Shown: positions 31,833 to 47,069, numbered from the stretch's first letter. The stretch is 47,069 nt of DNA from Candidatus Bipolaricaulota bacterium (GCA_041302745.1 JBFYQP010000037.1:1-47069), one strand, 5' to 3'. The notes: generated by a model not told the origin, from the letters alone. Numbers and translations are program-made.

Positions 31833-31860
31833 ACGCACGGCAGCGCCTTACGACGATCAT

Positions 31861-31896
31861 GACGGGAGGCCCGCGCGGCCTCCCGTCTCCTTTCTC
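31861..31896. terminator. Strong bidirectional hairpin terminator at the boundary of the catabolic cluster
   Basis: GACGGGAGGCC-cgcgc-GGCCTCCCGTC is a perfect 11-bp stem (31861-31887), followed by TCCTTTCTC on the plus strand. It lies between two convergent stops (31832 and 31900). Confidence 0.6.
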
Positions 31897-31899
31897 GGG

Positions 31900-32961
31900 T
31901 CAACTGTGCGAATGTCGGTGGTGCGCGTCCGGGGTGTGCGGGTGAGAGTGCTCGGACGGCGCGTGCGCGTGAGCATGCGAGTGCCTGTACGCGGCCCCCG
32001 CTCGCTCCGCCGCGTGCGAATGGGCGTGGTGCTCGTCGTGCACGTGAGCGTGCGTGTGAACGATCGGCTCGTGGGTGTGTCGGTGCGCGTGCCGTTCCCG
32101 CAGAAGAAGCACGAGGGCGAGGACCATCAGTGCGGCTCCCCCGTAGAACGACACGCGCGGCGCCTCGGGGAACAGGGCGAACGAGAGAATGGCGCCGGCG
32201 AACGGCGCGGCCGCGAAGACGGCGCCGGTCCTCGCCGTCCCTAGATTTCGCAGCGAGCGGACGAAGAGGGCGATGCTTGCCCCGTAGCATGCGGCGCCGA
32301 CCGCCAAGGCTGCGAGGGCGACGCCGTACGGCGGCAGCGGGCGGCCCAGGCCGACGGCGAGCCCGAGCGAGAAACTGCTGGCGACCAGCCCCTTGACGGT
32401 CGTGATCAATTTGGGGTCCCGGAGCGAGATCTGACGAGTGAGGTTGTTGTCGAGCCCCCAGAAGACGCAGGCGCCGAGAATGAGCAGAGCCCCCGGCGCG
32501 AAGCCCCAGCCTGCCGACGGATCGACGGAGAGGAGAGCGCCGCCGGCCGAGACGGCGGCCACGGCGGCCCACGTCCTGCCTCCGACCGCCTCGCGGAAGA
32601 GAGCGCCGGCGATCAGGGCCGTCGCGACGACCTCGAAGTTGAGAAGAAGGGATGCGGACGCCGCCTGCGTCGTCGTCAAGCCCAGGAGGAGGAGGATCGG
32701 TCCGGCCACTCCGCCCGCGACGACGGCGCCGGCAAGCCATGGAAGGTCCTGCCGTTCAAGCCCCGCCTCTCGATGCGTTGAAGCCCGGCCATTCGACGAC
32801 GGAGTGAGAGCACGCCACGCCAAAGCGAGGATTCCGAGGAAAGCGCCCGCGCCGAGGTAGAGGAGTCCCGCGAGGGCGATCGGGTCGACCTTCGCGAGGA
32901 GAACCTTGGAGAGCGGAGCGGAAATGCCGAACAGAAGGGCCGAGACGATTGCGTAGGCCAT
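31900..32961 (-). CDS. DMT/EamA-family permease with a histidine-rich C-terminal tail
   Basis: Two EamA-like halves (about 10 TM segments; FGISAPLSK, LGTARTGAVFAAAPFAG). The last 63 residues contain 23 His in HxH patterns. GAGGAGG SD, 19 nt after the stop of the XDH-family gene. Confidence 0.75.
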   Translation of the reverse strand: MAYAIVSALLFGISAPLSKVLLAKVDPIALAGLLYLGAGAFLGILALAWRALTPSSNGRASTHREAGLERQDLPWLAGAVVAGGVAGPILLLLGLTTTQAASASLLLNFEVVATALIAGALFREAVGGRTWAAVAAVSAGGALLSVDPSAGWGFAPGALLILGACVFWGLDNNLTRQISLRDPKLITTVKGLVASSFSLGLAVGLGRPLPPYGVALAALAVGAACYGASIALFVRSLRNLGTARTGAVFAAAPFAGAILSFALFPEAPRVSFYGGAALMVLALVLLLRERHAHRHTHEPIVHTHAHVHDEHHAHSHAAERAGAAYRHSHAHAHAPSEHSHPHTPDAHHRHSHS

Positions 32962-32980
32962 CCCTGGCCCCTCCTCGGGG

Positions 32981-35248
32981 CTAGACCGGCGCCCTCAGCA
33001 ACTCCCGCACGTACGGCGGGTCGAGCGGGTAGCGGCTTGGGTCGCGCCCGATCGCATGGGCGACCGCGCGGGCGACGGCGGCGTGCGCCGCCATGAGAGG
33101 CACCTCGCCGATCCCCTTCATGCCGAACGGCCCGGCGGGAAACGCCGCCTCGACGAAGTCGACGCGGACGTCGAGCGGGACGTCGCGAATCGTCGGCATC
33201 CGGTACGTCGTCAGGCCGTTCACGACAAGGCGGCCGTCCTTCTGCGGAATGGACTCCGACAACGCGAACCCGAGACCCTGGGCGATTCCGCCCTCGACCT
33301 GTCCCGCGGCCAGCGCCCGATTGAGGATCGTGCCGGAGTCGTGGGCCGCCGCGAAATCGACGACGTGAGCCTCCCCCGTGGCGAGGTCGACCTCGACCTC
33401 GGCGACGTGTGTCGCGAACGCGTAGACCGGGTAGGCGTCACCGAGTCCGGTCTCGGGATCCCAGCTCACGGGCTCCGTCTTCGCCCACCCCTCGACGGCG
33501 GGGTCGACGTTGCGCACCCAGAAGGCCCGCGCGATGTCGCTCCAGCGTTCGGCAACCGCGGCGTCGGGGATTCCGAGCTGGCGCGCGACGGCTGCGACTC
33601 GCTCGCGAAGCTTGCGCGCCGCGTCGAGCACCGCGAGCGCGGCCATCATCGTCCCGCGCGACGCCACGGTCGGCCCGCCGTCCGGGACGCGAGACGTGTC
33701 GACCGGCGCGAGGTGGACGCGCTCCATCGGCACGCCGAGGGCCTCGGCCGCGACCTGAAGGACCGCCGTGGAGAGGCCCTGCCCCATCTCGACCGTTCCT
33801 ACGGCCACCGTGACCGAGCCGTCGGCCTCGAGTTTCATGGCAGCACCGGCCTTGTCGAGGGACGGCGCCTTGCCGCCCAATCCCACGCCGTAGAGAACGC
33901 AGGAGACTCCCAGGCCGCGGCGGCGATCCGTGTGTGTCCGGTTGAACGCCTCGACGCGGGAGAGCCGCGCCGCCCAGTCGGCAAGCTCCGCGGCACGGTC
34001 GAGCGTCTCTGCGATCCCCACGCTCGCTTCGACACGGTGATCGGTCGAGGTTCGGTCGCCGGGGCGCAGGACGTTGCGCCGTCGAACGTCGATGCGATCG
34101 AGTCCGAGGCGCTCCGCGATCCGATCCATCTGCGACTCGTGGGGGAAGATGACCTGGGGGCTCCCGAACCCGCGAAACGCCCCGTTGGGCACGGTGTTCG
34201 TCGCCACAGAACGCGCGACGACGTGCACGTTCGGAATCCGGTACGGTCCCGCGGCGGTCACCAGGCTTCGCCACAGGACGGCGGAGGATAGGGTTTGGTA
34301 GGCGCCGGCGTTGAGCACAACGTCGACGTCGATGGCCGTGATGGTGCCGTCGGCCTTCGCCCCCGTCCGGTAGCGCACACGGGCCGGATGCCGCTTGCTC
34401 GTCGTGAGCACGTCCTCTCCGCGTTCCAGGACGAGCTTCGCCGGTCGGCGCGTCGTCCACGCCACGAGGGCGGCGAGAGACGCGATCAGCGATGGGACGT
34501 CCTCCTTGCCTCCGAATGCCCCTCCCGTGGCTGTTTGGATCACGCGAACCTTGGCGAGCGGAAGGCCGAGGACCTTGGCGACCGCGCCCTGCACGTAGAA
34601 CGGGCACTGCATCGACGCGTAGACCGCGATCGATCCGGCTTCGTCGGGAACGGCGATCGCCCCCTGGGGCTCGAGGTAGGCGTGCTCCTGGTAGCCGGTC
34701 TCGTACTCCCCTTCGACGACGACATCCGCCTGCGTGAACCCCTCGTCGACGTTGCCCTTCGCGAGGACCATCCGATTGAAGACGTTGCCTCCGCCCTCGG
34801 CGGCCGCCGCCACGCAGACAATGGGTGCATCGGGCTCGACGGCCCGCCTCGTGTCGGTGACCGCGGGGAGCGGCTCGTACTCGACGCGCACCTCGAGCGC
34901 CGCCTTTCGGGCGGCGCGACGCGACGTCGCCCCAACCAGGGCCACCGGTTCGCCGATGTAGCGAACGACGCCGTCCGCGAGCGCAGGTTGATCGTCATAG
35001 ATCACGTGCACGGCGTTCGCGCCGGGGACGTCCCGTTGGGTCACGACGCAGTCGACGTCCGGATCGCCAAGCGCTTTGGAAGCGTCGATCGAGAGGACCT
35101 TGGCGTGCGGGTGGGGGCTGCGAACGACGGCGACGTGGAGCATGCCGGGGAAGGCGAGGTCGTCGACGTACCTCGCCTCACCCCGAACCTTGTCGACCGC
35201 GTCCGGTCGAGGAACGCTCGCGCCGATCAGCGTCGTTCGCTTCTCCAT
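32981..35248 (-). CDS. Xanthine dehydrogenase/aldehyde oxidase-family molybdopterin-binding subunit
   Basis: From M48 of the track ORF: MEKRTTLIGASVPRPDAVDKVRGEARYVDDL (a/b-hammerhead start), large Mo-binding domains, and a C-terminal KGIGEVPL catalytic-Glu motif. About 755 aa with no fused [2Fe-2S] or FAD domain. Confidence 0.85.
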   Translation of the reverse strand: MEKRTTLIGASVPRPDAVDKVRGEARYVDDLAFPGMLHVAVVRSPHPHAKVLSIDASKALGDPDVDCVVTQRDVPGANAVHVIYDDQPALADGVVRYIGEPVALVGATSRRAARKAALEVRVEYEPLPAVTDTRRAVEPDAPIVCVAAAAEGGGNVFNRMVLAKGNVDEGFTQADVVVEGEYETGYQEHAYLEPQGAIAVPDEAGSIAVYASMQCPFYVQGAVAKVLGLPLAKVRVIQTATGGAFGGKEDVPSLIASLAALVAWTTRRPAKLVLERGEDVLTTSKRHPARVRYRTGAKADGTITAIDVDVVLNAGAYQTLSSAVLWRSLVTAAGPYRIPNVHVVARSVATNTVPNGAFRGFGSPQVIFPHESQMDRIAERLGLDRIDVRRRNVLRPGDRTSTDHRVEASVGIAETLDRAAELADWAARLSRVEAFNRTHTDRRRGLGVSCVLYGVGLGGKAPSLDKAGAAMKLEADGSVTVAVGTVEMGQGLSTAVLQVAAEALGVPMERVHLAPVDTSRVPDGGPTVASRGTMMAALAVLDAARKLRERVAAVARQLGIPDAAVAERWSDIARAFWVRNVDPAVEGWAKTEPVSWDPETGLGDAYPVYAFATHVAEVEVDLATGEAHVVDFAAAHDSGTILNRALAAGQVEGGIAQGLGFALSESIPQKDGRLVVNGLTTYRMPTIRDVPLDVRVDFVEAAFPAGPFGMKGIGEVPLMAAHAAVARAVAHAIGRDPSRYPLDPPYVRELLRAPV

Positions 35249-35250
35249 CC

Positions 35251-36276
35251 CTAGAGACGACCTCCCATCGTCAGGGTGAGGATCGCCTTCTGCGTGTGCA
35301 GACGGTTCTCCGCCTGGTCGAGGATCCACGACAGCTTGTTGTCGCACACCTCGGCGTCCGCCTCGTTGCCGCGGTCGACGGGCATGCACTGGAGGAGGTA
35401 CCCGGGGTCGCCAAGTCTCTTCTGGCGCTCCGTCGAGTACTTCCAGTTCACGTACTTCTTTGCGATCTCGGCTTCCTTCTCCTTGCCGATCTCGTAGCGG
35501 TCTTTCGTGAACCAGTTGCGCGGGAAGACGACGGTCGCCCCGTCCAGTGCCTTGTCAAGATCGTGCGAGATCTCGAACGACCCGCCCGACGCCGACGCGA
35601 GGTCGCGACAGTCTTGCATGACCTTCGGGTCGAGGTCGTACTCGGGCGGGTTGGCGACGACGACATTCATGCCGTACAGGGACGAGATGAGCGCCGTTCC
35701 CTGCACCGAGCACCAGCCGCGGATCCACGGCGACCAGGCCCACATGATGACGATCTTCTTTCGTTTCACGTCGCCGTCGAGCTTCTCGTGCATCGTGTAG
35801 ATGTCGGTCAGCGACTGGCAGGGGTGGTTGATGTCCGAGGCCATGTTGATGATCGGCACGCGGCAGTGCTTGGCGAACTTCTGCATCACCTCGTCCGCCT
35901 CGCCGTAGTGGCGGATCTTGTCATCGAGGAGGCGAATGCCCACGCCGTCGCAATACCGCTCCATCGCCTCGGCGGTGTCCTTCACCGTCTCCCCGGCGCC
36001 CGGCTTGTCCTCGAGCGACAAGCGCGTCGTCTGCGGGTCGATGAACTGCGCGTGCCCGCCGAGCTGCGTCATCGCCGTCTCGAACGACATGCGCGTTCGC
36101 GTCGAGCCGGCGAAGAACATCATCGCGAACGTCTTGTACTCGAGCGTCGGGTGAGGAATGCGGCTGTAGTACGCGCCCTTCAGCTGGTCGGTGACCTTCA
36201 TCGCGATGTCGTATTCCTCGCGAGTCCAGTCGAGCTCGCTGATGAGGTCCCGTCCCGCGAGATCAAACCAACTCAT
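35251..36276 (-). CDS. YgeW-like carbamoyltransferase, divergent paralogue (QCMP instead of HCLP)
   Basis: Carbamoyl-phosphate motifs GSTRTRMSFETAMTQLGG and NHPCQSL. WAWSP...FPRNW is YgeW-like. There is no SMG ornithine loop. GAAGGAGG SD. Confidence 0.8.
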   Translation of the reverse strand: MSWFDLAGRDLISELDWTREEYDIAMKVTDQLKGAYYSRIPHPTLEYKTFAMMFFAGSTRTRMSFETAMTQLGGHAQFIDPQTTRLSLEDKPGAGETVKDTAEAMERYCDGVGIRLLDDKIRHYGEADEVMQKFAKHCRVPIINMASDINHPCQSLTDIYTMHEKLDGDVKRKKIVIMWAWSPWIRGWCSVQGTALISSLYGMNVVVANPPEYDLDPKVMQDCRDLASASGGSFEISHDLDKALDGATVVFPRNWFTKDRYEIGKEKEAEIAKKYVNWKYSTERQKRLGDPGYLLQCMPVDRGNEADAEVCDNKLSWILDQAENRLHTQKAILTLTMGGRL

Positions 36277-36393
36277 GAAACCTCCTTCGCAACGGCACGA
36301 GCCGCAGAGAGCGCAGGGGATTGGGGAGATCGCTCACGAACCGTGGACTCCATCTCGGCGTCCTCTGCGTCCTCTGCGGTGTGCTTCCCCGTT

Positions 36394-37431
36394 CTAGCCC
36401 ATGATGCAGGCCATCATCCCTTTCTGGCCGTGGAGGCGGTTCGCCGCCTGTTCGATGATCACGGAGTTCGGGCCGTCGATGACGTCGTCGGTGACCTCCA
36501 TGTCACGATCCGCGGGCAAGCAGTGCATGTAGATCGCGTTGTTCGTCAGCTTCATCTTCTCCGACGTCGTGATCCAATGCTTGTTCGCCTCGAAGACGGC
36601 CTTCGCCTTCTCCGCGTCCATCGGCGTCTTGCCGTCGGTCGCCTGGACCGTCCACGCCTTCGGGTACACGACGTCGGCGCCCTTGAAGGCTTGGTCCATG
36701 TCGTTCACGACCTTGAACGCCCCGCCGTGCCGCTTCGCGAGGTCCTTCGACGCCTGGAGCACCTTCGGGTCGAGGTCGAGGCCCTTCGGGTGCGCGAGGG
36801 TGACGTCCATGCCCATCGTCGACGCGGCGATGATGCAGCTCTGCGGCACCGCGAGCGGCTTCTCGACCGAGCCGGAGTACGCCCAGCTCATGACGAACTT
36901 CTTGCCCTGCAGGTTGTGGCCGAGCTTCTCCTGCATCGTCATGACGTCGGCCAGGTCCTGGCACGGGTGGTACATGTCGTCTTCCATGTTGATGACCGGG
37001 ACCTTGGACCACTCGGCGAACTCGCGGACGATCCGGTTCCCCTTTCCGTAGATCCAGTCGGTGTACTTGCCGTAGATGCGGATCGCGATGGCGTCGCCCA
37101 TCTCGGCCAGCACGCGGGCGACATCGCTGATGCGCTCCGTCGAGTAGGCCTTCTCATCGCCCTTGAGGGCCGGGGTGTACACGGCGCCGGGCTGCAGGAA
37201 GTGGGCGTGGCCGCCGAGCTGCGTCATGGCGGTCTCGAACGAGTTCCGCGTTCGCAGCGACGTGTTGTAGAACATCATGTGAAGCGTCTGCCCGTCGAGC
37301 ACCTTGTGGGGCTCGCGGCGGATGAACTTGCGCTTCAGGTCGTGCGCGGTGTCGAGCATGGCGTCGATCTCGTCGCGCGAAAACTCCAACCAGGTGATGA
37401 AATCTCGTCCTCGTAGCGTGGTGTTCGACAT
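36394..37431 (-). CDS. YgeW-type carbamoyltransferase (substrate unknown)
   Basis: TSLRTRNSFETAMTQLGG, YHPCQDL, MSWAYSGSVEKPLAVPQS...MDVTLAHPKGLDLDP, DVVYPKAWT and YMHCLPAD closely parallel E. coli YgeW as I recall its sequence. Confidence 0.85.
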   Translation of the reverse strand: MSNTTLRGRDFITWLEFSRDEIDAMLDTAHDLKRKFIRREPHKVLDGQTLHMMFYNTSLRTRNSFETAMTQLGGHAHFLQPGAVYTPALKGDEKAYSTERISDVARVLAEMGDAIAIRIYGKYTDWIYGKGNRIVREFAEWSKVPVINMEDDMYHPCQDLADVMTMQEKLGHNLQGKKFVMSWAYSGSVEKPLAVPQSCIIAASTMGMDVTLAHPKGLDLDPKVLQASKDLAKRHGGAFKVVNDMDQAFKGADVVYPKAWTVQATDGKTPMDAEKAKAVFEANKHWITTSEKMKLTNNAIYMHCLPADRDMEVTDDVIDGPNSVIIEQAANRLHGQKGMMACIMG

Positions 37432-37446
37432 GGTCTCTCCTTGGAT

Positions 37447-38403
37447 CTACTCCCTCGTGATCGTGGTTCCCGCTTTGCCTTCCAGCGCGTCCGTCGCCTT
37501 GTCGAGCGACGTGATGATCGCCTTCTCGCCGCCCGACTCGATGAACCGGATGGCGGCGCGCACCTTGGGCTCCATCGAGCCCTTGGCGAAATGCCCTTCG
37601 GCGGCGTACTTCTTTGCCTCGGCCACCGTCATTCGGGCGAGGCTCGTCTCCTGCGGCGTCTTGTAGTGCAGCTTCACCTGGGCGACGTCGGTCAGGATCA
37701 TGAAGATCGAGGCCTTCACGTCGGCGGCGAGCCGCTCGCCGGCGAGGTCTTTGTCGATGACGGCGTCAACGCCCTTCAGCCCTCCGTTCTCGCGCAAGAC
37801 GGGGATCCCGCCGCCGCCGGAGGCGATGACGATCGTGCGGGCGTCGACGAGCTGGCGGATGGCCTCCTTCTCGAAGATCTCGACAGGGTCCGGGGACGCG
37901 ACGACGCGGCGCCACCCGCGGCCGGCGTCCTCTTTCACGTCGTAGCCCTTCTCCTTCTTCAGGCGGGCGGCCTCGTCTGCGCTGTAGAACGGGCCGACCG
38001 GCTTCGTCGGGTTGGCGAACGCGGGATCGGCCTTGTCGACGACGACCTGCGTGACGATCGTCGCGACCGGGATCGAGCCCTTTCCCTTCGCCGCGAGGAG
38101 GTTGATCAGGTTCTGCTGAATCATGTAGCCGATCAGCCCCTGGCTCTCCGCGCCACAGACGTAGAGAGGCATCGGTGCGGCGACCTCCTTGCCCACTTCG
38201 TTCTGGAGCAGGATGTTGCCGACCTGCGGGCCGTTCCCGTGGGTCACGACGATCTTGTACTTGCCCGAGTCCACCATGTGAGCGAGCTGCTCGCACGTGA
38301 TGTGGACGTTCTTCATTTGTTCTTCGAACGTTCCGCGCTGCCCCGGCTGAAGAATGGCGTTTCCGCCCAGGGCAACGACGACCAGCTTCTTCTCGACTTG
38401 CAT
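37447..38403 (-). CDS. arcC: Carbamate kinase
   Basis: KLVVVALGGNAILQPGQ, VVTHGNGPQVG and later carbamate-kinase blocks. 318 aa. Its stop lies 15 nt upstream of the carbamoyltransferase start. Confidence 0.9.
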   Translation of the reverse strand: MQVEKKLVVVALGGNAILQPGQRGTFEEQMKNVHITCEQLAHMVDSGKYKIVVTHGNGPQVGNILLQNEVGKEVAAPMPLYVCGAESQGLIGYMIQQNLINLLAAKGKGSIPVATIVTQVVVDKADPAFANPTKPVGPFYSADEAARLKKEKGYDVKEDAGRGWRRVVASPDPVEIFEKEAIRQLVDARTIVIASGGGGIPVLRENGGLKGVDAVIDKDLAGERLAADVKASIFMILTDVAQVKLHYKTPQETSLARMTVAEAKKYAAEGHFAKGSMEPKVRAAIRFIESGGEKAIITSLDKATDALEGKAGTTITRE

Positions 38404-38455
38404 TCCATCACCCTTCCTGTTTCGTTGGCGGATGGGTTCGGGCCTAGGCTGCGGC

Positions 38456-39163
38456 CTACGCCTCCCAGATCTCCCGCATCCGCGTCCAATGCTCGACCAT
38501 CTTCGTGAACGCCGCGTCCTCGTCCTGGTCCTCGACAGCGTCGAGGATCTCCCGGTGCAGGTCGACGACGTGCTGCAGATCGCTCACGTTCTTCAAGTAG
38601 TAGTGCCGTGTGAACTCCCGGTAGACCCTCTGATCCATCGTGTCGATCAGCGGGACGAGGGCGGACCCCACGAGAGGGTTCCCCGCCGCGTCGGCCAGGG
38701 CGCGATGGAACGCCTTGTCGGCCGCGAAGTACGCGTCGAAGTCGTTCTCTCCGGCCCGGACACGCATCGTTTCGAGAATCTCGCGGAGCTGCTCGATCGC
38801 GGCCTCGTCCGACTTCTCGGCGGCCATCGCCGCCACGGGCGGCTCGAGGGCTTCGCGAGCCTCCATCACCTCGAGACAGCCGGCCTCGCTCTCAATCAGG
38901 TGGAGCGTGTTCGACTCGTCCGTTGTCGACGGCGCCCGCAGCACGTAGTTCCCGCTTCCGGGACGCGACTCGATGATCGCCATCGCTTGGAGAGCCGACA
39001 GCGCCTCGCGGATGGACGGTCGGCTCACGCCCATCTGCTCGGCCAGCTCAAACTCCGACGGAAGGCGGCTCCCCACGGGGAAATCGCCTCGGTGGATCGC
39101 GTCAACGATCTGCTCGGCGGCGATCGCCGAGACCTTCCGCGACTGCACCCTACTGAACCGCAT
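38456..39163 (-). CDS. GntR-family transcriptional regulator, FadR/FCD subfamily
   Basis: wHTH LPSEFELAEQMGVSRPSIREALSALQAMAIIESRPGSGNYV, followed by an all-helical FCD-like C-domain. The ATG at 39163 is preceded by AAGGAG; the track's GTG 39181 is less likely. Confidence 0.85.
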   Translation of the reverse strand: MRFSRVQSRKVSAIAAEQIVDAIHRGDFPVGSRLPSEFELAEQMGVSRPSIREALSALQAMAIIESRPGSGNYVLRAPSTTDESNTLHLIESEAGCLEVMEAREALEPPVAAMAAEKSDEAAIEQLREILETMRVRAGENDFDAYFAADKAFHRALADAAGNPLVGSALVPLIDTMDQRVYREFTRHYYLKNVSDLQHVVDLHREILDAVEDQDEDAAFTKMVEHWTRMREIWEA

Positions 39164-39274
39164 TGCCGTCTCCTTCTTCACTCGATCTTGTGTCGTTCCC
39201 TTCGATGATACCCCCGCTCGCGCGGGCAGACCCAGCCGGTGCGGCGCAGGGCCCTTGGGCGTAGGCCATTCGCC

Positions 39275-40384
39275 TCATGGGCGAGCCTCCTTCACGGGGA
39301 CGAGGCCTCCTCCCCTCTGCAGGAGGAGGGCCGCCGCGGGGCAGGACGAGGCACAGAGTCCGCATCCGCGGCAGTCCGCTTCGACGATCGTCTCTGCGCT
39401 TCGCCGTGCCCCGTACGGGCAGACGCGGACGCAGACTCCGCACTGCGTGCAGGCCGTGCGGCTCCAGGCGAATGTCCAACCCTCTCGAACCTGCGTTCCG
39501 TTCGAAGCGGCGACAAGTGCCGGGAGGCCCGCCCCCGTCGCTTCGCCCGGGCTCTGGAACCCCAGCGAGGCAAGGCGCGCCGACACGTCCCGAAGGAGGT
39601 CGCCGAAGACCGACACGCCGTGCAGCACGGGCGCCGTGCAGACTCCGACGGCGGTCGCCCCCGCGTAGAGCATCTCGAGGACATCGTCGGCGGTTTCGAC
39701 GCCCCCCGTCCCGATGATGGGGCATCCCGTTTCGCGCGCGATGTCGGCAACGACGCGGAGAGCGATGGGAAGGATCGGCCGTCCCGAGAGCCACCCGTAT
39801 CCTCCGAGCCGCGGGCGGCGCGAGGCGAGGTCGAAGCGCAGTGCCGGCCCGACGGAGTCAATGGCTGTGATGGCCGATGCGCCGTTCGCGAGGCACGCGC
39901 GGGCGGTCTCGACGACGCCCGGCGCGTTGGCGCTCACCTTCGCGAACACCGGCACGGAGGCGCGCCTCACCGCCTCCTCGACCATGCCGGGCACGGCCGA
40001 ACCGTCGTACGAGACGACCTCGAGCGCGCAGGCTCCTGCTTCGGCCAACGCGCCGGCGAGCGCGCGCACATCCTCGCGCGTCAGCCCCACGCTCGCGATC
40101 ACCACGGTCCCCGCCTGGCGGGCGCGCGGGATCTCCCGCTCGATCCACCGTTCGGGGGAGAGGTCGGACCAGCGTTCGGCGTTCAGGAGCCCGCCGCTCG
40201 ACCGCGCGATGTGCGGCACCGGGTTCACGGCCGCGCGCACGCCGATGGTCTTCGTGACGACGGCGCCGGCGCCGGCGCGGGTGGCGCGCGCGAGCGCGTC
40301 CCCGTCAAACGAGAGCGGGCCCGAGGCGAGCACGAAGGGCGTTCGGAGCTTCAGGCCGCACAGGTTCGTCGCAAGGTCGATCAT
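39275..40384 (-). CDS. PreA-like (DHODH/dihydropyrimidine dehydrogenase-fold) FMN protein with a C-terminal 2x[4Fe-4S] ferredoxin domain
   Basis: MIDLATNLCGLKLRTPFVLASGP, FAKVSAN and IIGTGGVETADDVLEMLYAGATAVGVCTA (FMN barrel). CTQCGVCVRVCP and CRGCGLCASSCP clusters. ATGA overlap with the upstream gene. Confidence 0.75.
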   Translation of the reverse strand: MIDLATNLCGLKLRTPFVLASGPLSFDGDALARATRAGAGAVVTKTIGVRAAVNPVPHIARSSGGLLNAERWSDLSPERWIEREIPRARQAGTVVIASVGLTREDVRALAGALAEAGACALEVVSYDGSAVPGMVEEAVRRASVPVFAKVSANAPGVVETARACLANGASAITAIDSVGPALRFDLASRRPRLGGYGWLSGRPILPIALRVVADIARETGCPIIGTGGVETADDVLEMLYAGATAVGVCTAPVLHGVSVFGDLLRDVSARLASLGFQSPGEATGAGLPALVAASNGTQVREGWTFAWSRTACTQCGVCVRVCPYGARRSAETIVEADCRGCGLCASSCPAAALLLQRGGGLVPVKEARP

Positions 40385-41700
40385 CGGCCCCCCTTCGTCC
40401 ACAGGCGGCGTGCCTGGGCGTGGGCCTCGCGGCGCGCGGCCTCAAGGTCGACGGCCAGGAGTTCGCCGTCCCTGAAGAGCACCCGTCCGTCGACGACCGT
40501 GAGAGCGACATCCGCCCCGGACCGGAACAGAACGAGCTGTTCGGCGACGTTCTCGGCCGTGAGGGGCGTGTCGAGGTCGAGGCGTACGCCGACCACGTCG
40601 GCGCGTCGCCCCGGCGCTAGGAGGCCCGCGTTGACGCCGACGGCGTCGGCGCCCCACGCCGTGGCCATGGCGAGCACCGTCCGTGCCGGCATGACTCGCG
40701 CGTCGCGTCGCACTCCCTTGTGGATGAGGAAGGCGGTGCGCATGACCTCGAACGGGTCGTTGATGTACCCGTCGGTGCCGAGGCCGGGGCGCATCCCGGC
40801 CTCGAGCATCTCGGGGATCGGGGCGACGCCTCCGCCGACCTCGCAGTTGCTCGCCGGCATGTGGGCGAGGCGCACCCGCCGCTTCGCCAGCACCGCGATC
40901 TCGTCTTCGTCGAGCGAGACGCCCTGCGAGGCGAGCACCGAGCTGTCCCAGAACCCCAGGCGGTCGTACCAGATCGCAGGCCGCACTCCGTATCGCTCGA
41001 GGGTGAACGACGGCTCGTAGTCGCTCTCGGAGAGATGAAGGTGGATGCGGACGCCCGACTCGACGGCGAGGGCCTTTCCTTCCCGCACGAACGCCTCCGA
41101 GCACGAGAACGACGTGTGCAGGCTCATCATCCCGGTCACGCGCCCCGTTCCGTGCGCGGCGGCGAATCCGGCGTTCTCGAACAGCGCCGCCCGCGCCGCG
41201 GCCTCGCCGTGGCGCTCGGACGCCTCGAGCGAAAGCACGGCGCGGATGCCCGTCTCCTCGGCGACGCGGGCCTCGACGTCGAGAACGCCGGACGCCGCGC
41301 GCGGCGCCTCGAGGACGTCGCACACGGTCGTGATGCCGAAGCGGATCATCCTCGCGCAGGCGAGGCGGAAGGCCGCCTCGACCATCGCGGCGTCGAGACG
41401 ATCTTCGACGCGCGGCCACCAGAACTCGGCGAGGAACGGGTAGAACCCGGCCGGCGGCTCCGCAAGGGGGATGCCGTGCGCCAGGATGCCGTAGGAGTGC
41501 ATGTGCGCGTTGACGAATCCCGGCATCAGGAGGAGGTCGCGCGCGTCGATCGTCTCGATCCCCGGCCGCGTTGCGGCGAGGGTCTCGTTGGGGCCGACGT
41601 CCGCGATCGCGCCGTCGACGATCCGCACGCCCCACCCCGTTTGCAGTAGAGCGTCGGCCGCCGTCAGCAGGGCTCCGCCGAGAAGGATCCGCTCAGTCAT
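40381..41700 (-). CDS. SsnA-like metal-dependent amidohydrolase (chlorohydrolase/deaminase superfamily)
   Basis: LLMPGFVNAHMHSYGILAHGI...FLAEFWWPRVEDRLD parallels E. coli SsnA (PGIVCSHNHFYSGLSRGI...LWWRLDRALD) as I recall it. HxH, later His residues and Asp (GTDGY) are present. Confidence 0.75.
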   Translation of the reverse strand: MTERILLGGALLTAADALLQTGWGVRIVDGAIADVGPNETLAATRPGIETIDARDLLLMPGFVNAHMHSYGILAHGIPLAEPPAGFYPFLAEFWWPRVEDRLDAAMVEAAFRLACARMIRFGITTVCDVLEAPRAASGVLDVEARVAEETGIRAVLSLEASERHGEAAARAALFENAGFAAAHGTGRVTGMMSLHTSFSCSEAFVREGKALAVESGVRIHLHLSESDYEPSFTLERYGVRPAIWYDRLGFWDSSVLASQGVSLDEDEIAVLAKRRVRLAHMPASNCEVGGGVAPIPEMLEAGMRPGLGTDGYINDPFEVMRTAFLIHKGVRRDARVMPARTVLAMATAWGADAVGVNAGLLAPGRRADVVGVRLDLDTPLTAENVAEQLVLFRSGADVALTVVDGRVLFRDGELLAVDLEAARREAHAQARRLWTKGGR

Positions 41701-43603
41701 GGCGCAGCGCCTCCAGCCGAGCGGCGACGTCGGGGAGCTCGAGGCGAAGGAGCGTGTCAGGCGTCGGCCAGCCGCGCTCGGCGTCCCACCCGCGGAGCGC
41801 GTAGTACTCGTCGAGCATCTCCTCGGCGTGGGCGATCTCGCCGCGCGCGCCCATCGACGGCGACGGCTCTTCTTTGAAGCGGCGCGGGAGCCGATCGTCG
41901 GCGCGCGTGATTCCGTGCACGGCGTTGTAGGCGCGCATCAGGTTGTAGATCCGCTCGCCGGTTTTCCGCAGGGCGTCGGGCGTCGTCTCGACCCCGGTCG
42001 CGTAGGTCAGGCCTTCCGCAAGGTCGGGCCAGTAGACCTCGGCCATCACGAACGTTCCGCCGGACTTGCAGACGCCGACGGAGTCAACGACGGCGCCGTA
42101 GTCCTCCCCATCCTTCACCAGGAACGGCTTGTGTTTGGTCGCGTGGGGGTCCGCCATCTCCGGCAGGAACGCGGCGCCGTAGCGTCGAGCGACCTCGTTG
42201 GGGCTCCCGGTCTCGTCGATCGTCGGGAACGCCTTCAGGTGGTCGGCGCCGCGGCTCGACGTGATGTGCGCGAGCCCCATCGACTGCTGGGCGCGGCCGT
42301 CCTGAGCGGGGATCTCGAGTCCCTTGACCTCCATGGCGTACTCCTCGGCGCCCCGGCCGATGCGGTGTGCCGCCTCGCGCACCCCGAGCGACAGGAGGTC
42401 GCCGAAACCCTCGCGGCGCGCAATGCGCTCGATCAGTTCGAGCATGACGTGGTAGTCGCCCCACCGCAGTTCTAGGCCGTCGGTGTCGGCCTTCGTCAGG
42501 AGCCCCTTCTCGAAGAGCTCGAACGCGAACGAGATCGATCGCCCGGCCGAGATGGTGTCCATTCCCAAGCGGTCGCACCGCTCGTTCGCGTGAAGGATGG
42601 ACGGGAGGTTGTCGTTTCCGACCGCGGCGCCGAACGCGTTCAGGGTCTCATACTCGAGACTGGACGTCACCGCTCCGGCAAACTCCCCGGACGTCACGTG
42701 GAAGACCTTGTCGCAGCGGATCGGACAGCCGAAGCACCCTGCGTCCTTCACCCAGTGGTTGCGGCGCAGGGCGTCGCCGGCGATGCGGTCCGCGGCCGCG
42801 AAGTCGCCCGACTGGAAGTTGCGCGTCGGGAACCGCCCGATCTCGTTCACGACGGAGACGAGGCCCGACGTTCCGTGCCGGGAGATCGACGGGTAGAACT
42901 CGTTTCTTCGGATCCGTTCGTGCATCGCCCGCGCGAGCCGGGTGAACTCCGTCGGAGAGGCGATCGGCACGGGACGCGAGCCGCGGACGGCGATCGCCTT
43001 CAGCCGCTTCGCGCCCATCACAGTGCCCACGCCCGTTCGGGCGAGGCTGCGGTTCGGTGAGGCCTGGATGGACGCGTAGCGAACGCCATTCTCCGCCGCG
43101 GGACCGACGCAGGCGACCATGACTCGGTCGTCGGCCTTCGCCCGCCGGATTGCGGCCTCCGTCTCGACCGTATCGAGCCCCCACAGGTCGGCGGCGTCCT
43201 CGAGCTTCGCGCGGCCGTCGTCGATCCAGAGCCACACGGGGCGGCTTGCCTGGCCGGTGAAGACGAGGAAGTCGTAGCCGCTCCGCTTCAGCTCCGGGCC
43301 GAACATACCGCCGCAGTTGGCGTCGCCGTAGATGCCGGTGAGGGGAGACTTTGCGATGGCTTCGAAGCGCCCGGAGGTCGGCCAGGCCGTGCCGCACAGG
43401 GGGCCGGACGCGAGGATCAGATCGCTCTCCGGCGAGAGCGCGTCGACGGCGGGCGGAACCTCGTCCCAAAGAATGCGGACGCCGAACCCGTTTCCCCCGA
43501 GGTAGCGGAGGCGGAGCTCCCGGGGCGTCTCGGCCGCGACGATCTCGCCGTTCGATAGATCGACTCGCAAGGACTGACCTGCGTAACCGCCGGTTCGGCT
43601 CAT
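41693..43603 (-). CDS. Aldehyde:ferredoxin oxidoreductase-family (tungsto/molybdopterin) enzyme, copy B
   Basis: From the internal MSRTGGYAGQSLRVDLSNG: 636 aa. AFOR_N pattern (LGGNGFG...ASGPLCGT), [4Fe-4S] ligands CFGCPIRC plus DSVGVCKSG, and SSRGADH. The 1023-aa track ORF is a run-on into the upstream gene. Confidence 0.85.
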   Translation of the reverse strand: MSRTGGYAGQSLRVDLSNGEIVAAETPRELRLRYLGGNGFGVRILWDEVPPAVDALSPESDLILASGPLCGTAWPTSGRFEAIAKSPLTGIYGDANCGGMFGPELKRSGYDFLVFTGQASRPVWLWIDDGRAKLEDAADLWGLDTVETEAAIRRAKADDRVMVACVGPAAENGVRYASIQASPNRSLARTGVGTVMGAKRLKAIAVRGSRPVPIASPTEFTRLARAMHERIRRNEFYPSISRHGTSGLVSVVNEIGRFPTRNFQSGDFAAADRIAGDALRRNHWVKDAGCFGCPIRCDKVFHVTSGEFAGAVTSSLEYETLNAFGAAVGNDNLPSILHANERCDRLGMDTISAGRSISFAFELFEKGLLTKADTDGLELRWGDYHVMLELIERIARREGFGDLLSLGVREAAHRIGRGAEEYAMEVKGLEIPAQDGRAQQSMGLAHITSSRGADHLKAFPTIDETGSPNEVARRYGAAFLPEMADPHATKHKPFLVKDGEDYGAVVDSVGVCKSGGTFVMAEVYWPDLAEGLTYATGVETTPDALRKTGERIYNLMRAYNAVHGITRADDRLPRRFKEEPSPSMGARGEIAHAEEMLDEYYALRGWDAERGWPTPDTLLRLELPDVAARLEALRHD

Positions 43604-45456
43604 CCTCGCCCTCCGACGTCGGCCAGCCACCGTTCGAGGCCCAGCCCTTGGAGGGTCTCCCGCGTCGGGATCCCGTTCGCGTCCCAGCCGCGCAGCGCGT
43701 AGTAGCGGGCGAGCATCTCGTCGAAGCCTTCGATGACGTGGAGCGTCGTCCGTCCGCCTCGCTCCACGGGCATCGGCTCCTCCGTGAATCGGCTCGGAAG
43801 CCGGTCGTCCTTGGACGACAACCCCAGACGGACATTGAACATCCGTTCGAGGTTGACGATGCGCTCCCCGGCGCGCAGGAGTTCGTCGCCCGTCGTCTCG
43901 ACGCCGAGCGCGCGGGCCCCGCGGGCAAGGTCCTCCGGGTGCAGCGGATGGGTCTCCACCGTGCTGAACTTGCAGACGCCGAGCGAGTCGGCCACGGCGC
44001 AGTAGTGCTCGCTGAAGACAACCAGGTCGGGCTTGTGGCGCTCGTCGCTCGGATCCATGACGTCCGGCAGGACGTGGGCCAGGTGCATGCGAGCGGCCTC
44101 CTCGAGCCCGGCGGTATCGATCGTCGGCAACGCGTAGAGATGGTCGGCGCCGCGGTTCGACGTCGCGTGCCCGAGGCCGAAGCTCTTCGCCACGCGGCCC
44201 TCCTGCGACGGGATCTCGAGGCCTTTGACCTCCATGGCGTACCGGGGGGCGTCGCCGCCCAGGGTCGCCGCGGCCGCACGCACGCCGGAAGCAAGGAGGT
44301 CGCCGATGCCGCTGCGCGAGGAGATCCGCCGGACGACCTCGACGACCGTCTCGGGGTCCCCCCACTCGAGCGACAGGGTCTCGTCGTCGAGCAGCCCGCG
44401 CTCGTGGCACTCCATGGCGAACGCGATCGCGGCCCCGGTCGACAGCGTGTCGAGGCCGAGCTCGTTGCAGAGCATGTTGGCGTAGAGGATGACTTCCGGA
44501 TCGGAGCAGTCGCACTGCGGCCCGAGGGAGTCGACGGTCTCGTACTCCGGCCCCGCCGTCGTGCAGGCGTAGGCCCCGCCGCGAACCGTCGAGATGCGGC
44601 CGCACCGGATCGGACAGCCCAAGCAGCCTTTGACCTCCGACTTGTAGGCCTCGAGGGCCTCGGCGTCGATCCGGTCGATGAACGCGACCTGGCCCCGCTG
44701 GTGGTTCTTTGCGGGCAGGTCGCCGATCTCGTTCTTGATCGCCGTCAAGAACGGCGTGCCCCATCGACTCAGGTTCTGGATGGACGGGGCCGAGAGCAGC
44801 CGCTCGGTTGCCCGCCGCGCCTCGGCGAGGAACGCTCTAGGCGCTCGATCGGGCGGGACCCTGTCGACGACGACGGCCTTCAGGTTCTTCGATCCGAACA
44901 CCGCGCCGCCCCCGGTGCGCGCCGCCGCGCGGCCGCCGTCGTTGATCACGGCGGCGAACCGGACGCCGTTCTCGCCCGCCGGGCCGATGCTCGCCACGGC
45001 GGCGTCTGGGTATCGCTCGTGCAGGGTCGCTTCGGTCTCCCGGGTCGTCTTTCCCCAGAGGTCGCCGGCCGGCCGGACGGCCACCGACCCGCGACCCACG
45101 AGGAGGTGAGTCGGCGTCTCGGCGCGCCCGCGCACGACGATCGCGTCGAAGCCGCACGCCGCGAGGAACGGGCCGAGCTTGCCGCCGGCGTTGGCATACC
45201 CGTAGCACCCCGTCAACGGCGATCGGAACGTGAGGTGGTAGCGCGAGGCGGCCGGCCACGGCGTGCCGGAGAAGAGCCCCGACGTGAGGATGAGGGCGCT
45301 CTCCGGATCGAGGGGGGCGATGCCGGGGGGCGCCAGGTCGTAGATCAGGCTGGCTCCGTATCCGCGCCCGCCGAGGAACTCGTCGAGCCGATCCCTCGGC
45401 GTGTCAACGATCTCGGTCGCGCCGAGAGAAAGGTCCACGTACGCTGTCTTCCGCAT
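43600..45456 (-). CDS. Aldehyde:ferredoxin oxidoreductase-family enzyme, copy A
   Basis: MRKTAYVDLSLGATEIV...LGGRGYG...TSGLFSGT, CLGCPIRC plus DSLGVCKFS, and SNRGADH. 618 aa. ATGA overlap with copy B. Confidence 0.85.
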   Translation of the reverse strand: MRKTAYVDLSLGATEIVDTPRDRLDEFLGGRGYGASLIYDLAPPGIAPLDPESALILTSGLFSGTPWPAASRYHLTFRSPLTGCYGYANAGGKLGPFLAACGFDAIVVRGRAETPTHLLVGRGSVAVRPAGDLWGKTTRETEATLHERYPDAAVASIGPAGENGVRFAAVINDGGRAAARTGGGAVFGSKNLKAVVVDRVPPDRAPRAFLAEARRATERLLSAPSIQNLSRWGTPFLTAIKNEIGDLPAKNHQRGQVAFIDRIDAEALEAYKSEVKGCLGCPIRCGRISTVRGGAYACTTAGPEYETVDSLGPQCDCSDPEVILYANMLCNELGLDTLSTGAAIAFAMECHERGLLDDETLSLEWGDPETVVEVVRRISSRSGIGDLLASGVRAAAATLGGDAPRYAMEVKGLEIPSQEGRVAKSFGLGHATSNRGADHLYALPTIDTAGLEEAARMHLAHVLPDVMDPSDERHKPDLVVFSEHYCAVADSLGVCKFSTVETHPLHPEDLARGARALGVETTGDELLRAGERIVNLERMFNVRLGLSSKDDRLPSRFTEEPMPVERGGRTTLHVIEGFDEMLARYYALRGWDANGIPTRETLQGLGLERWLADVGGRG

Positions 45457-45539
45457 CTTGAGAACTCCGCCCGCGCGCTCGGCCCGGCCTCCGGCGAGCG
45501 TGCGAGGCTCCGGTTCCCCCTCCTGCCCGTCCTGTTTGG

Positions 45540-45587
45540 TGGTCAGCTTGTCAGACTGGATTGTACACAGTCCTTCGTAGGCCGCAA
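45540..45587 (-). promoter_or_regulatory. Promoter (TTGCGG-N16-TACAAT) plus candidate operator for the AOR operon
   Basis: On the minus strand, TTGCGG lies at 45587-45582 and TACAAT at 45565-45560. After 3 nt comes the palindromic heptamer GTCTGAC (45556-45550), with a second CTGACCA at 45546-45540. This is the only AT-richer patch in the 148-nt gap. Confidence 0.45.
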
Positions 45588-45604
45588 CGCCGAGGCCTTG
45601 CCGG

Positions 45605-46984
45605 CTACCGGCTCTTCGAGGCCTCCCGATTCCCTCCGGTGCGGACAGGACGTCCTCGCCCGGGAGCCGCCACGATTCGCCCCTTCTCCGAGACGACCTC
45701 GCCCCTCGACAGGGTGGCGGTCACGCGGCCGACGATCGGTCGCCCTTCGTAGGGAGAGAAGTCGGTGTGGGAGTGGAGGTCCGCGGCGGCGACCTTCGAC
45801 GTGCTGTCTGGGTCGTATAGGACGACGTCGGCGTCGGACCCGACGTCGAGGGCGCCCTTGCGTGGGTAGATGCCCAGGCGTTTTGCCGGGCGCTCGCAGA
45901 GGATGCGAGCGAGGTCGGTCAGGTGGAGGCGCCCCGTGGCGGCGCCCTCCGTGTAGAGGAGCGGGAGCAGGGTCTCGACGCCCGGGAGTCCGTACGGAAG
46001 ATCGAGGAACGAGCCGTGCCACGTCTTCTGCTCGCGGGTGAACGGGCAGTGGTCCGTGGCGACGTAGTCGATGTCCTGGCTGCGGAGGCCGGCCCAAAGC
46101 GCCTCCCGATCGCCGTCCGTGCGCAGCGGCGGCGCCGCCGAGAAGAGGCGCCCGTCGTCGCGGTCGTAGACGGCGCTCGTCAGGAGAAGGTACTGCGGGC
46201 AGGTTTCCGCGCTGATGGAAGCCCCGTCGGATCGTGCCGTGCGGACCGCGTCGAGGCCGATGTGCGAGCTGACGTGCACGATGTGCAGCGGGCAGCCGGC
46301 TCTGCGCGCGGCTCCCGCGACCTGCGAGATCGCGACCTGCTCTGCGAGGTCGGGGCGCGCCGCGGCCAGCGTTCGCATGCGGCCGCGATCCTCGTCCGTC
46401 AGGCGCGCGGCGATCGATTGGATCAGCCCGTCGTCCTCGGCGTGGACGACCGCCAGGGCGCCCAGCCGAGCCAGCTCGCGGAACGCCGCGGCCATCTCCC
46501 GCGGACCCGTCCGGCGCCCCGACGCGGCGTACGTCGTGTAAAACTTGAAGCTCGAGATCCCGAGATCCACCGCGTCGCGGAACTCGCCCTCCCGCCCCGC
46601 GTGCCACCCGACCACCTCTCCGTGCAGGGCATAGTCGACGACCGAAGGGGCCGCGTCCGCGAGGCGTTCTTCGATCCCTTGCGGGATCGTTCGCCCGGGG
46701 GCGCCGACCGTGAAGTCGACGATCGTCGTGACCCCGCCGCACGCCGCGGCTTGGCTTCCGGAGAGGAAGTCGTCGCTCGAGCGGGTTCCGGCGACAGGCA
46801 GCGCCATGTGGACGTGGGCGTCGATCACGCCCGGGAAGACGAGGAGCCCCGAGGCGTCGAGCTCGCGCCGGCCTCGGAGCCCGGGACCGACGGCGGCGAC
46901 GCGCTCTCCGTCGACGGCGACGTCGGCCGACTCGACGGCAAGCGGGCTGACCAGGGTTCCGTTGCGGATGACGAGATCGTACAT
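45605..46984 (-). CDS. D-hydantoinase/dihydropyrimidinase (cyclic amidohydrolase)
   Basis: MYDLVIRNGTLV...GVIDAHVHM, SSFKFY (carboxylated-Lys position), VVHAEDD, LHIVHVSS and VATDHCPF: the full DHPase metal-ligand set. GAGGAG SD. 459 aa. Confidence 0.85.
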   Translation of the reverse strand: MYDLVIRNGTLVSPLAVESADVAVDGERVAAVGPGLRGRRELDASGLLVFPGVIDAHVHMALPVAGTRSSDDFLSGSQAAACGGVTTIVDFTVGAPGRTIPQGIEERLADAAPSVVDYALHGEVVGWHAGREGEFRDAVDLGISSFKFYTTYAASGRRTGPREMAAAFRELARLGALAVVHAEDDGLIQSIAARLTDEDRGRMRTLAAARPDLAEQVAISQVAGAARRAGCPLHIVHVSSHIGLDAVRTARSDGASISAETCPQYLLLTSAVYDRDDGRLFSAAPPLRTDGDREALWAGLRSQDIDYVATDHCPFTREQKTWHGSFLDLPYGLPGVETLLPLLYTEGAATGRLHLTDLARILCERPAKRLGIYPRKGALDVGSDADVVLYDPDSTSKVAAADLHSHTDFSPYEGRPIVGRVTATLSRGEVVSEKGRIVAAPGRGRPVRTGGNREASKSR

Positions 46985-47024
46985 GGGCTCCTCTTTTCGC
47001 GGCGGAATGCAGGATCTTGCGAAC

Positions 47025-47065
47025 TGGTCAGACAGCATGATAGCATTGCCCGAACGAGGCCTCAA
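47025..47065 (-). promoter_or_regulatory. Promoter (TTGAGG-N17-TATCAT) plus candidate operator for the hydantoinase gene
   Basis: On the minus strand, TTGAGG lies at 47065-47060 and TATCAT at 47042-47037. After 3 nt comes GTCTGAC (47033-47027), which overlaps CTGACCA (47031-47025). On the plus strand the site reads CTGGTCAGACAG. Confidence 0.45.
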
Positions 47066-47069
47066 CCGG

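Follow-up and report, generated by a model that had tools for sequence, protein, structure and literature searches.

The minus-strand operon that occupies the right third of a 47,069-nucleotide stretch of Candidatus Bipolaricaulota DNA (GCA_041302745.1, JBFYQP010000037.1:1-47069; the whole stretch is referred to below as the window) encodes two paralogous members of the aldehyde ferredoxin oxidoreductase (AOR) family, here designated AOR-A and AOR-B, followed by an SsnA-like amidohydrolase and a flavin mononucleotide (FMN) and iron-sulfur reductase of the UacX/PreA/PydA type, hereafter UacX-like. Phylogeny and residue conservation indicate that the two proteins represent the sister branches of an AOR-family clade that duplicated long ago and has not been described before, and comparison of genomic surroundings indicates that this clade is a fixed part of anaerobic operons for the reductive degradation of purine-type rings. 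It is very probably dedicated to that pathway and not a general aldehyde scavenger. The enzyme family itself is known; what is new here is its recruitment, duplication and active-site change within a recently discovered pathway. In the 2026 classification of tungsten oxidoreductases (WORs), a defined physiological role is assigned to a member of only 5 of the 92 clades (PMC13328260). For one further clade there is now a physiological setting that is concrete and open to testing, namely the reductive purine pathway of anaerobes, which was worked out only in 2025, and there is a realistic chance that the AOR family gains a new substrate class with it.

Both AOR proteins (618 and 636 aa) are present as an earlier note on this DNA had described them, and each is matched over its full length by AFOR_N (PF02730) and AFOR_C (PF01314), with E values of 2.5e-67 to 1.7e-129. 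The cysteine motifs and RGADH block quoted in that note occur in both proteins, as KGCLGCPIRCGR, DSLGVCK and NRGADH in AOR-A and as AGCFGCPIRCDK, DSVGVCK and SRGADH in AOR-B, and their identity of 46% agrees with its description of the paralogues as clearly diverged. The three gene overlaps that it reported can all be read directly in the sequence: the stop codon of AOR-A and the start codon of AOR-B share an ATGA at 43603-43600 (context ...GGAGGGCGAGGATGAGCC...), AOR-B and the SsnA-like gene share 8 nt (ATGACTGA at 41700-41693, context ...CGCCATGACTGAGCGG...), and the SsnA-like and UacX-like genes share an ATGA at 40384-40381 (context ...GGCCGATGATCGAC...). These junctions indicate that the four genes are translationally coupled. 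Tight or overlapping junctions recur in other Bipolaricaulota, for example at locus L009, where two junctions overlap by 10 and 8 nt and a third leaves 3 nt between the genes, and at locus L012.

The relationships of the two proteins were assessed with a neighbour-joining tree of 105 AORs including five solved structures, the Protein Data Bank (PDB) sequences being rebuilt from phmmer alignments; it is a local tree, distinct from the 92-clade WOR tree, and was bootstrapped with 100 replicates on 49 representatives. AOR-A (29 sequences) and AOR-B (21 sequences) are sister clades, with bootstrap values of 100 for A, 100 for B and 95 for A and B together, and the Pyrococcus furiosus enzyme (PfAOR), 9MQX, the Aromatoleum AOR (AaAOR) and the Clostridium autoethanogenum AFOR (CaAFOR) fall outside A+B in 100 of 100 replicates. 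Both window proteins possess the features by which the AOR/WOR family is recognized, namely the two domains, the four cysteines and the pterin contacts Arg76, Arg182 and Asp489, and by family they would be tungsten-type enzymes. They fail the NF007354 "aldehyde ferredoxin oxidoreductase" equivalog model (cut-off 868 bits), AOR-A scoring 161.6 and AOR-B 241.8 bits over the N-terminal third only. Their best PDB matches are PfAOR and the other solved "clade 87" AORs (PDB 1AOR, 9MQX, 9G7J, 8C0Z), at 344-437 bits, with which they share the two-domain fold, the four [4Fe-4S] cysteines, Arg76/Arg182/Asp489 and Thr243/Glu313/His448. They differ from PfAOR-type enzymes in carrying Gln at Tyr427, His at Tyr439 and Asp at Cys447, in not keeping the Fe-bridge residues Glu332/His383, in lacking AorA/AorC or Bfu-type subunits, and in being obligately paired paralogues within a heterocycle-degradation operon instead of standing alone.

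Residues were compared in PfAOR numbering across 29 AOR-A, 21 AOR-B and 55 other AOR sequences. The four cluster cysteines (C288, C291, C295 and C494), the three pterin contacts, and Thr243, Glu313 and His448 are invariant in all AOR-A and AOR-B sequences. In aldehyde-oxidizing members, the active-site set Thr243, Glu313, Tyr427 and His448 is highly conserved (PMC13328260), and Tyr427 is present in all five solved aldehyde-oxidizing AOR and formaldehyde ferredoxin oxidoreductase (FOR) enzymes. This tyrosine is replaced by Gln in 50/50 A- and B-clade sequences; among the other 55 AORs the position holds Tyr in 38, His in 13, Gln in 2 and Val in 1. Further changes that mark A and B together are I89Y, Y439H, M453P, P456D and G500E, and positions 91, 255, 256, 309, 338, 357, 428 and 450 discriminate A from B. 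In the numbering of the window proteins, AOR-A retains Cys278/281/285/495, Thr234, Glu306 and His439 and has Gln418 at the Tyr427 position, and AOR-B retains Cys290/293/297/512, Thr245, Glu319 and His455 and has Gln434. The opinion of the earlier note that both proteins look functional therefore stands for the cluster ligands, Thr243, Glu313 and His448, but not for the active-site tyrosine. The two cases of Gln427 outside A+B belong to two AORs of a Thermoplasmata metagenome-assembled genome (MAG; L043:9437-17792) that branch beside the A+B clade. No heterocycle context is found at this Thermoplasmata locus, where the neighbours are an MFS transporter and an HpaB-like protein and each AOR has its own WorS-type ferredoxin, and Gln427 by itself thus does not define association with the pathway.

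Because the Tyr427 position, the NF007354 equivalog and the phylogenetic placement all set them apart, AOR-A and AOR-B lie outside the characterized aldehyde-oxidizing group. The earlier note had named as fatal to its proposal the outcome that both copies fall inside an aldehyde-oxidizing AOR clade with unrelated neighbours in relatives; what was found is a separate A+B clade whose neighbours are SsnA-like and nearly always UacX-like genes across several phyla. Two other assignments within the family were considered and rejected. A BamB-like identity is disfavoured by scores of 186 and 241 bits for AOR-A and AOR-B against BamB, compared with 390 and 437 bits against PfAOR, and by the lack of BamC-I-type partner genes in the window. 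A YdhV-type or Class V membrane WOR is disfavoured by the lack of a WorS or other ferredoxin gene in the window and of a twin-arginine motif in the N-termini (MRKTAYVDL... and MSRTGGYAG...).

In a database search, AOR-A matched more than 100 clusters (90% identity) at 52-85% identity, the named ones from Bipolaricaulota and Chloroflexota/Anaerolineae, and the same protein was found on contigs of the Candidatus Bipolaricaulota MAG GCA_041302755.1 (JBFYRA010000031), which extend past the right end of the window. Scanning one genome per GTDB species yielded 80 loci, which were probed by tblastn with the window proteins. All loci with an AOR at least 48% identical to AOR-A and enough flanking DNA carry an SsnA-like gene and nearly always a UacX-like gene, usually in the order AORA-AORB-SsnA-UacX and often with HyuA; at about 40 loci whose AORs are no more than 43% identical to AOR-A, the SsnA-like neighbour was found in none. 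The synteny of A/B-clade AORs with the SsnA-like gene spans Bipolaricaulota, Chloroflexota, some Bacillota and others. AOR-A occurs without AOR-B in two Bacillota loci, in Sediminicultor and in some loci labelled Thermotogae (AOR-A-only loci include L114, L137, L110, L141, L032, L100 and L125). The gene order is SsnA-UacX-PreT-like-AORA-HyuA-Xdh at L114 and L137, and L110 and L141 begin in the same way before the contig ends; loci with this complete order pair a single AOR with a single Mo hydroxylase and provide UacX with an NAD(P)H-type partner.

The pathway to which these genes are tied can be recognized by comparison with the reductive urate (2,8-dioxopurine) pathway described in two preprints of 2025 (Li et al., 10.1101/2025.05.19.654654; Liu et al., 10.1101/2025.04.24.650524). 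In that pathway, XdhD converts urate to 2,8-dioxopurine, YgfK or, in clostridia, the PydA-like FMN/Fe-S enzyme UacX carries out dearomatization, SsnA and HyuA open the two rings, YgeW and the carbamate kinase YqeA (or UacY), with YgeY, remove two ureido groups, and YgeX converts diaminopropionate to pyruvate. The route needs four electrons, and clostridial UacX and XdhD are thought to use reduced ferredoxin; its clusters are exemplified by ygeW-xdhD of Escherichia coli and by the variant with UacX of Clostridium difficile and Clostridium sporogenes (10.1101/2025.05.19.654654; 10.1101/2025.04.24.650524). The window operon resembles this cluster in its hydantoinase (38% identical to E. coli HyuA), in an SsnA-type gene beside a UacX-type gene, in YgeW-related carbamoyltransferases with a carbamate kinase (49% identical to E. 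coli YqeA), in a Mo subunit of the xanthine dehydrogenase (XDH) family, and in a pyridoxal phosphate (PLP) enzyme past the window end. The SsnA-like protein is 26% identical to E. coli SsnA and scores 221-230 bits against TIGR03314/NF005540 (cut-offs 444-455), the two carbamoyltransferases are 35% and 28% identical to E. coli YgeW and score 167 and 103 bits against the YgeW equivalog (cut-off 500), and the UacX-like protein, adjoining the SsnA-like gene, has a PF01180 FMN domain and two [4Fe-4S] clusters. The SsnA-like and PreA-like downstream genes of the earlier note were thus found, as Amidohydro_1 and as DHO_dh with two [4Fe-4S] clusters, both below equivalog cut-offs.

An alignment of 14 SsnA-like orthologues was used to scan metagenomes, and the family so delimited (43-60% identity) occurs in two kinds of neighbourhood, one with AORs and one with Xdh-type Mo hydroxylases. 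In the latter, the Xdh-type genes are accompanied by HyuA, YgeY-like peptidases, carbamoyltransferases, carbamate kinase and YgeX, and also by UacX paired with a PreT-like NAD(P)H subunit. Because the same SsnA-like family sits elsewhere with the gene families of the published pathway, the window operon can be regarded as a distant variant of that pathway, and the heterocycle-degradation context proposed in the earlier note is strongly supported. The window departs from the published cluster in that two AOR genes hold the usual place of XdhD beside SsnA and UacX, in having a second carbamoyltransferase and no YgeY, in having no YgeX equivalog, the PLP enzyme nearby being CysK/CBS-like, and in that its Mo subunit lacks Fe-S/FAD partners and is nearer XdhA (32.5% identical) than XdhD (29%) of E. 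coli. Neither YgeY nor YgeX was found by Pfam and NCBIfam scans of the called open reading frames (ORFs) of the window; the second carbamoyltransferase probably replaces YgeY, and a substitute for YgeX may be the divergent PLP enzyme. This enzyme, a 492-aa CysK/CBS/SbnA-like protein, lies just past the right window end (L002:178-2666) and is oriented divergently from the hydantoinase gene. The XDH-family Mo subunit of the window follows carbamoyltransferase 2 after a 2-nt gap and has neither a fused nor an adjacent 2Fe-2S or FAD subunit.

A literature search found no paper that links AORs or tungsten with ssnA, hydantoinase, dioxopurine or purine degradation, in keeping with the expectation of the earlier note that such a role would be new. 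Neither pathway preprint mentions tungsten or AORs (10.1101/2025.05.19.654654; 10.1101/2025.04.24.650524), and purine, pyrimidine, amidohydrolase and hydantoin contexts are not mentioned in the 2026 WOR classification (PMC13328260).

The distribution of Mo hydroxylase genes bears on what the AORs might do. Among loci with at least 12 kb of total DNA flanking the SsnA-like gene, with ±10 kb covered, an Xdh-type large subunit occurs in 14 of 23 loci that lack AORs (with as many as three copies at one locus), in 4 of 9 with AOR-A only, and in 1 of 23 with both AOR-A and AOR-B, namely the window. UacX has a PreT-like partner only in loci without AOR-B and in none of the A+B loci. The Xdh/AOR pattern is as expected from non-orthologous displacement of the Mo hydroxylase step or steps by the AOR pair. 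XdhD, or 2,8-dioxopurine dehydrogenase (DOPDH), a Mo enzyme that is Se-dependent in some species, takes the same genomic position relative to SsnA and UacX and is almost mutually exclusive in occurrence with the AOR-A+B pair, and the role proposed for the AORs is likewise reversible hydroxylation and dehydroxylation of a purine ring carbon at pathway entry. The two belong to unrelated families, XdhD having Mo with molybdopterin cytosine dinucleotide or molybdopterin, two [2Fe-2S] clusters and in some cases FAD, in contrast to the bis-pyranopterin W/Mo and single [4Fe-4S] cluster of AORs. The AOR pair may be functionally equivalent to XdhD.

Our preferred reading, which is held tentatively, is that the AORs hydroxylate or dehydroxylate purine ring carbons in place of the Mo hydroxylases (XdhD/DOPDH and XDH), with electron exchange through ferredoxin or UacX. 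A more specific version, possible but distinctly doubtful, would make AOR-A and AOR-B the first tungsten N-heterocycle hydroxylase/dehydroxylases, one oxidizing a purine C-H (e.g., xanthine C8) and the other forming 2,8-dioxopurine through reductive loss of the C6 oxygen from urate, and would thereby provide Bipolaricaulota and Chloroflexota with a Mo-hydroxylase- and Se-independent entry wired directly to the Fe-S domain of UacX. In the preferred reading, one AOR would reduce urate with two electrons at C6 to 2,8-dioxopurine, and the other could possibly form urate from xanthine at C8. The conversion between N-C(=O)-N and N=CH-N would be the aza-analogue of the acid/aldehyde interconversion of AORs. 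Mo hydroxylases of the xanthine oxidase family act on both aldehydes and heterocycles. Electrons would pass from the [4Fe-4S] cluster of each AOR to ferredoxin or directly to the two-[4Fe-4S] domain of UacX, which would reduce the dioxopurine; the SsnA-like enzyme and the hydantoinase would then open the two rings, and the two carbamoyltransferases and carbamate kinase would draw ATP from the two ureido groups. If xanthine is the substrate, one oxidizing and one reducing AOR would render the entry steps redox-neutral, and the UacX step could be paid for by pyruvate oxidation. If the AORs do replace the Mo-dependent, and in clostridia Se-dependent, hydroxylase step, N-heterocycles would join aldehydes and benzoyl-CoA within the reach of AOR chemistry, the entry of purines into the pathway in subsurface anaerobes without XdhD would be accounted for, and a tungsten-based low-potential catalyst for urate removal would be at hand.

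Several points weigh against this hydroxylase reading. We know of no AOR-family enzyme that hydroxylates or dehydroxylates an N-heterocycle, and the retention of Thr243, Glu313 and His448 would still permit an aldehyde or acid substrate. The anti-correlation with Xdh is not phylogenetically independent because the A+B loci are mainly from Bipolaricaulota and Chloroflexota, and it was counted over ±10 kb, so that other parts of these genomes may contain an Xdh gene. Nor is the substitution one-for-all, because the window has an XDH Mo subunit and four AOR-A-only loci have Xdh. We can only infer the exact substrate, be it urate, xanthine or another purine- or pyrimidine-like ring, because the SsnA-like protein is so distant from E. 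coli SsnA and fails the SsnA models. Finally, FTR-like, MCH-like, ribokinase and ADP-ribosylglycohydrolase-like genes in related operons hint at a nucleoside-derived substrate and possibly other ring chemistry.

These genes occur in a second group of Bipolaricaulota, in which the core AORA-AORB-SsnA-UacX (then HyuA where the contig reaches) is accompanied by extra flanking operon genes, namely NAD-kinase-like, FTR-like, MCH-like, a second TRZ/ATZ amidohydrolase, GlcD-like and CCG Fe-S proteins, ADP-ribosylglycohydrolase-like and ribokinase genes. The FTR-like and MCH-like proteins, which are formyltransferase and cyclohydrolase homologues, fall below equivalog cut-offs. The extended operons suggest a nucleoside- or purine-fed variant with formyl-group chemistry. 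They were seen at L009:812-17244 and at L012, L017, L018, L020, L021, L088, L092, L093, L096 and L098.

The set of candidate electron-partner genes differs between lineages. A six-frame search of the whole window for the ferredoxin motif CxxCxxCxxxCP gave two matches, both in the C-terminus of the PreA-like (UacX-like) protein, and no WorS/AorA-, AorC- or MoaD-like gene or separate ferredoxin was found in the window by that scan and by Pfam/NCBIfam searches of the called ORFs. The statement of the earlier note that the operon has no separate ferredoxin, AorA/AorC partner or maturation gene is accordingly true of the window, but it is specific to this lineage. The compact Chloroflexota operon reads CT-AORA-HyuA-Fdx-AORB-MoaD-SsnA-UacX (CT, carbamoyltransferase; Fdx, ferredoxin), with a WorS-like poly-ferredoxin of about 135-177 aa directly before AOR-B (L013:13279-15984, L014:11883-14481, L016:9059-11679 and L023:13271-16067) and, at the same four loci, a ThiS/MoaD-like protein ending in GG directly after it. 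As both genes are present in the Chloroflexota operons, their lack in the window is a secondary loss in its lineage. The electron partner of the AORs would then plausibly be UacX, through its Fe-S domain, or a ferredoxin whose gene lies elsewhere. In the published scheme, Class I comprises WorL alone and Class II comprises WorL with the poly-ferredoxin WorS, with or without the ThiS-like WorX (PMC13328260). By gene content, the window, with WorL alone, is Class I, and the Chloroflexota AOR-B orthologues, with a WorS-like 4x[4Fe-4S] gene upstream and a ThiS-like gene downstream, are Class II.

Alternatively, the AORs can be seen as an electron-input module that oxidizes a metabolic or environmental aldehyde and, by way of the [4Fe-4S] clusters, supplies low-potential electrons to UacX at its Fe-S domain (and to the Xdh subunit), replacing the NAD(P)H-dependent partners of the PreT/YgfM type that serve in other forms of the pathway. 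We consider this unlikely, though it accommodates the retained Thr243, Glu313 and His448, the best PDB matches being genuine aldehyde:ferredoxin oxidoreductases, the four-electron requirement and presumed ferredoxin dependence of the published pathway, and the observation that UacX never has a PreT-like partner in A+B loci when many AOR-free loci have one. The strong anti-correlation is, however, with Xdh and not with PreT alone; the invariant Tyr427-to-Gln change is unlike every characterized aldehyde oxidizer, and two long-diverged paralogues, each with its own invariant signature, are hard to justify for a generic electron donor. Nor is an aldehyde-producing enzyme conserved in these operons: family scans revealed none in the window operon, and none is among the genes that similarity searches could identify in the compact Chloroflexota operon, the remaining ORFs of which were not family-scanned. 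Even on this conservative view, AORs acting as dedicated electron-input partners of a PydA/UacX-type reductase would constitute new physiological wiring for the family.

It is also conceivable, if improbable, that the AORs act on another intermediate, either by reducing a carboxylate or lactam in a compound whose ring is already open or partly reduced or by aiding low-potential dearomatization together with UacX in a BamB-like manner, the substrate being a purine-derived or other N-heterocycle, possibly nucleoside-derived, rather than urate or xanthine. BamB shows that the AOR family is capable of non-aldehyde reductive chemistry. As the catalytic subunit of class II benzoyl-CoA reductase (PDB 4Z3W), it carries out a low-potential ring reaction and offers a precedent for ring chemistry within the family. 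A broader or different substrate would suit the extra genes of the related Bipolaricaulota operons and the failure of the SsnA-like and UacX proteins to reach equivalog cut-offs. The similarity to BamB is, however, far below that to AOR (186-241 versus 390-437 bits), BamC-I-type partners are missing, the ring-reducing, dearomatizing role in the operon is already covered by UacX, and the published pathway is without a carboxylate-to-aldehyde step. The least probable explanation, that ordinary broad-spectrum aldehyde-detoxifying AORs were inserted by chance into an N-heterocycle operon, could appeal to P. furiosus AOR being the nearest solved structure by score and to the database annotation of merely "aldehyde ferredoxin oxidoreductase family protein", but it is largely refuted by the synteny with SsnA-like (and nearly always UacX) genes kept in Bipolaricaulota, Chloroflexota, Bacillota and others and absent for distant AORs, by the separation of the clade from solved AORs, and by the overlapping start and stop codons.

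The window has a G+C content of about 68%, and its operon comprises 11 genes that are transcribed in the order hydantoinase, AOR-A, AOR-B, SsnA-like amidohydrolase, UacX-like FMN/Fe-S reductase, regulator, carbamate kinase, two carbamoyltransferases, XDH Mo subunit and transporter (Table 1).

Table 1. Features of the AOR operon and its flanks, in order of transcription.
Feature	Position	Strand	Remarks
Sigma-70-like promoter match, candidate operon promoter	47037..47065	-	upstream of hydantoinase gene; consensus match only; at window edge
HyuA-like D-hydantoinase/dihydropyrimidinase	45605..46987	-	TIGR02033 395.6 bits vs cut-off 393.25
AOR-A, AOR-family (tungstopterin + [4Fe-4S]) oxidoreductase, 618 aa	43600..45456	-	AFOR_N + AFOR_C
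AOR-B, paralogous AOR-family oxidoreductase, 636 aa	41693..43603	-	AFOR_N + AFOR_C
SsnA-like (TRZ/ATZ-type) amidohydrolase	40381..41700	-	Amidohydro_1; below every equivalog cut-off
UacX/PreA/PydA-like FMN reductase	39275..40384	-	DHO_dh fold + C-terminal 2x[4Fe-4S]; PreA-like, below cut-off
GntR/FadR-family transcriptional regulator	38456..39181	-	
Carbamate kinase (YqeA/ArcC type)	37447..38403	-	TIGR00746 435.9 bits vs cut-off 358
Carbamoyltransferase 1, N-acetylornithine-carbamoyltransferase-like	36394..37431	-	35% identical to YgeW
Carbamoyltransferase 2	35251..36276	-	28% identical to YgeW
Xanthine-dehydrogenase-family Mo-binding large subunit	32981..35248	-	pucD, xdhB and XdhA models 500-554 bits, all below cut-offs
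Membrane protein, last operon gene	31900..32961	-	EamA-like by sequence reading; His-rich C-terminal tail
GC-rich hairpin, 11-bp stem	31861..31887	.	between convergent genes

The promoter match listed is the one promoter-like site found in 31500-47069. A spacer of 148 nt between the hydantoinase and AOR-A genes (45457-45604) is the sole sizeable gap among the first five genes, and it contains no Rfam match and no terminator-like site. Searches for a riboswitch or leader RNA gave zero Rfam matches, both at gathering thresholds over the window and five loci and at E ≤ 1 over 38300-47069. At the other end, the hairpin likely marks the end of the operon. The membrane protein encoded by the last gene has no NCBIfam match, a Pfam scan not having been made for this protein; the His-rich sequence at its C-terminus (HTHAHVHDEHHAHSH...HSHAHAHAPSEHSHPH...) suggests metal binding.

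The remainder of the window consists of housekeeping genes (an ftsH fragment, dxr, murJ, rplI, folP, polA, glmM-like, gcvP/H, dnaB, rpsB, tsf, pyrH, recG and fmt). Two plus-strand genes in these surroundings have no apparent tie to the AOR finding: a 474-aa ORF at 12564-13988 that lacks a Pfam match, and a gene at 9061-10779 for a 572-aa protein with CARDB and CsgG-like domains. Past the right window end, the 492-aa PLP enzyme gene is followed by one whose product fuses a DUF2478/NTPase domain to a PNPOx/F420-type domain.

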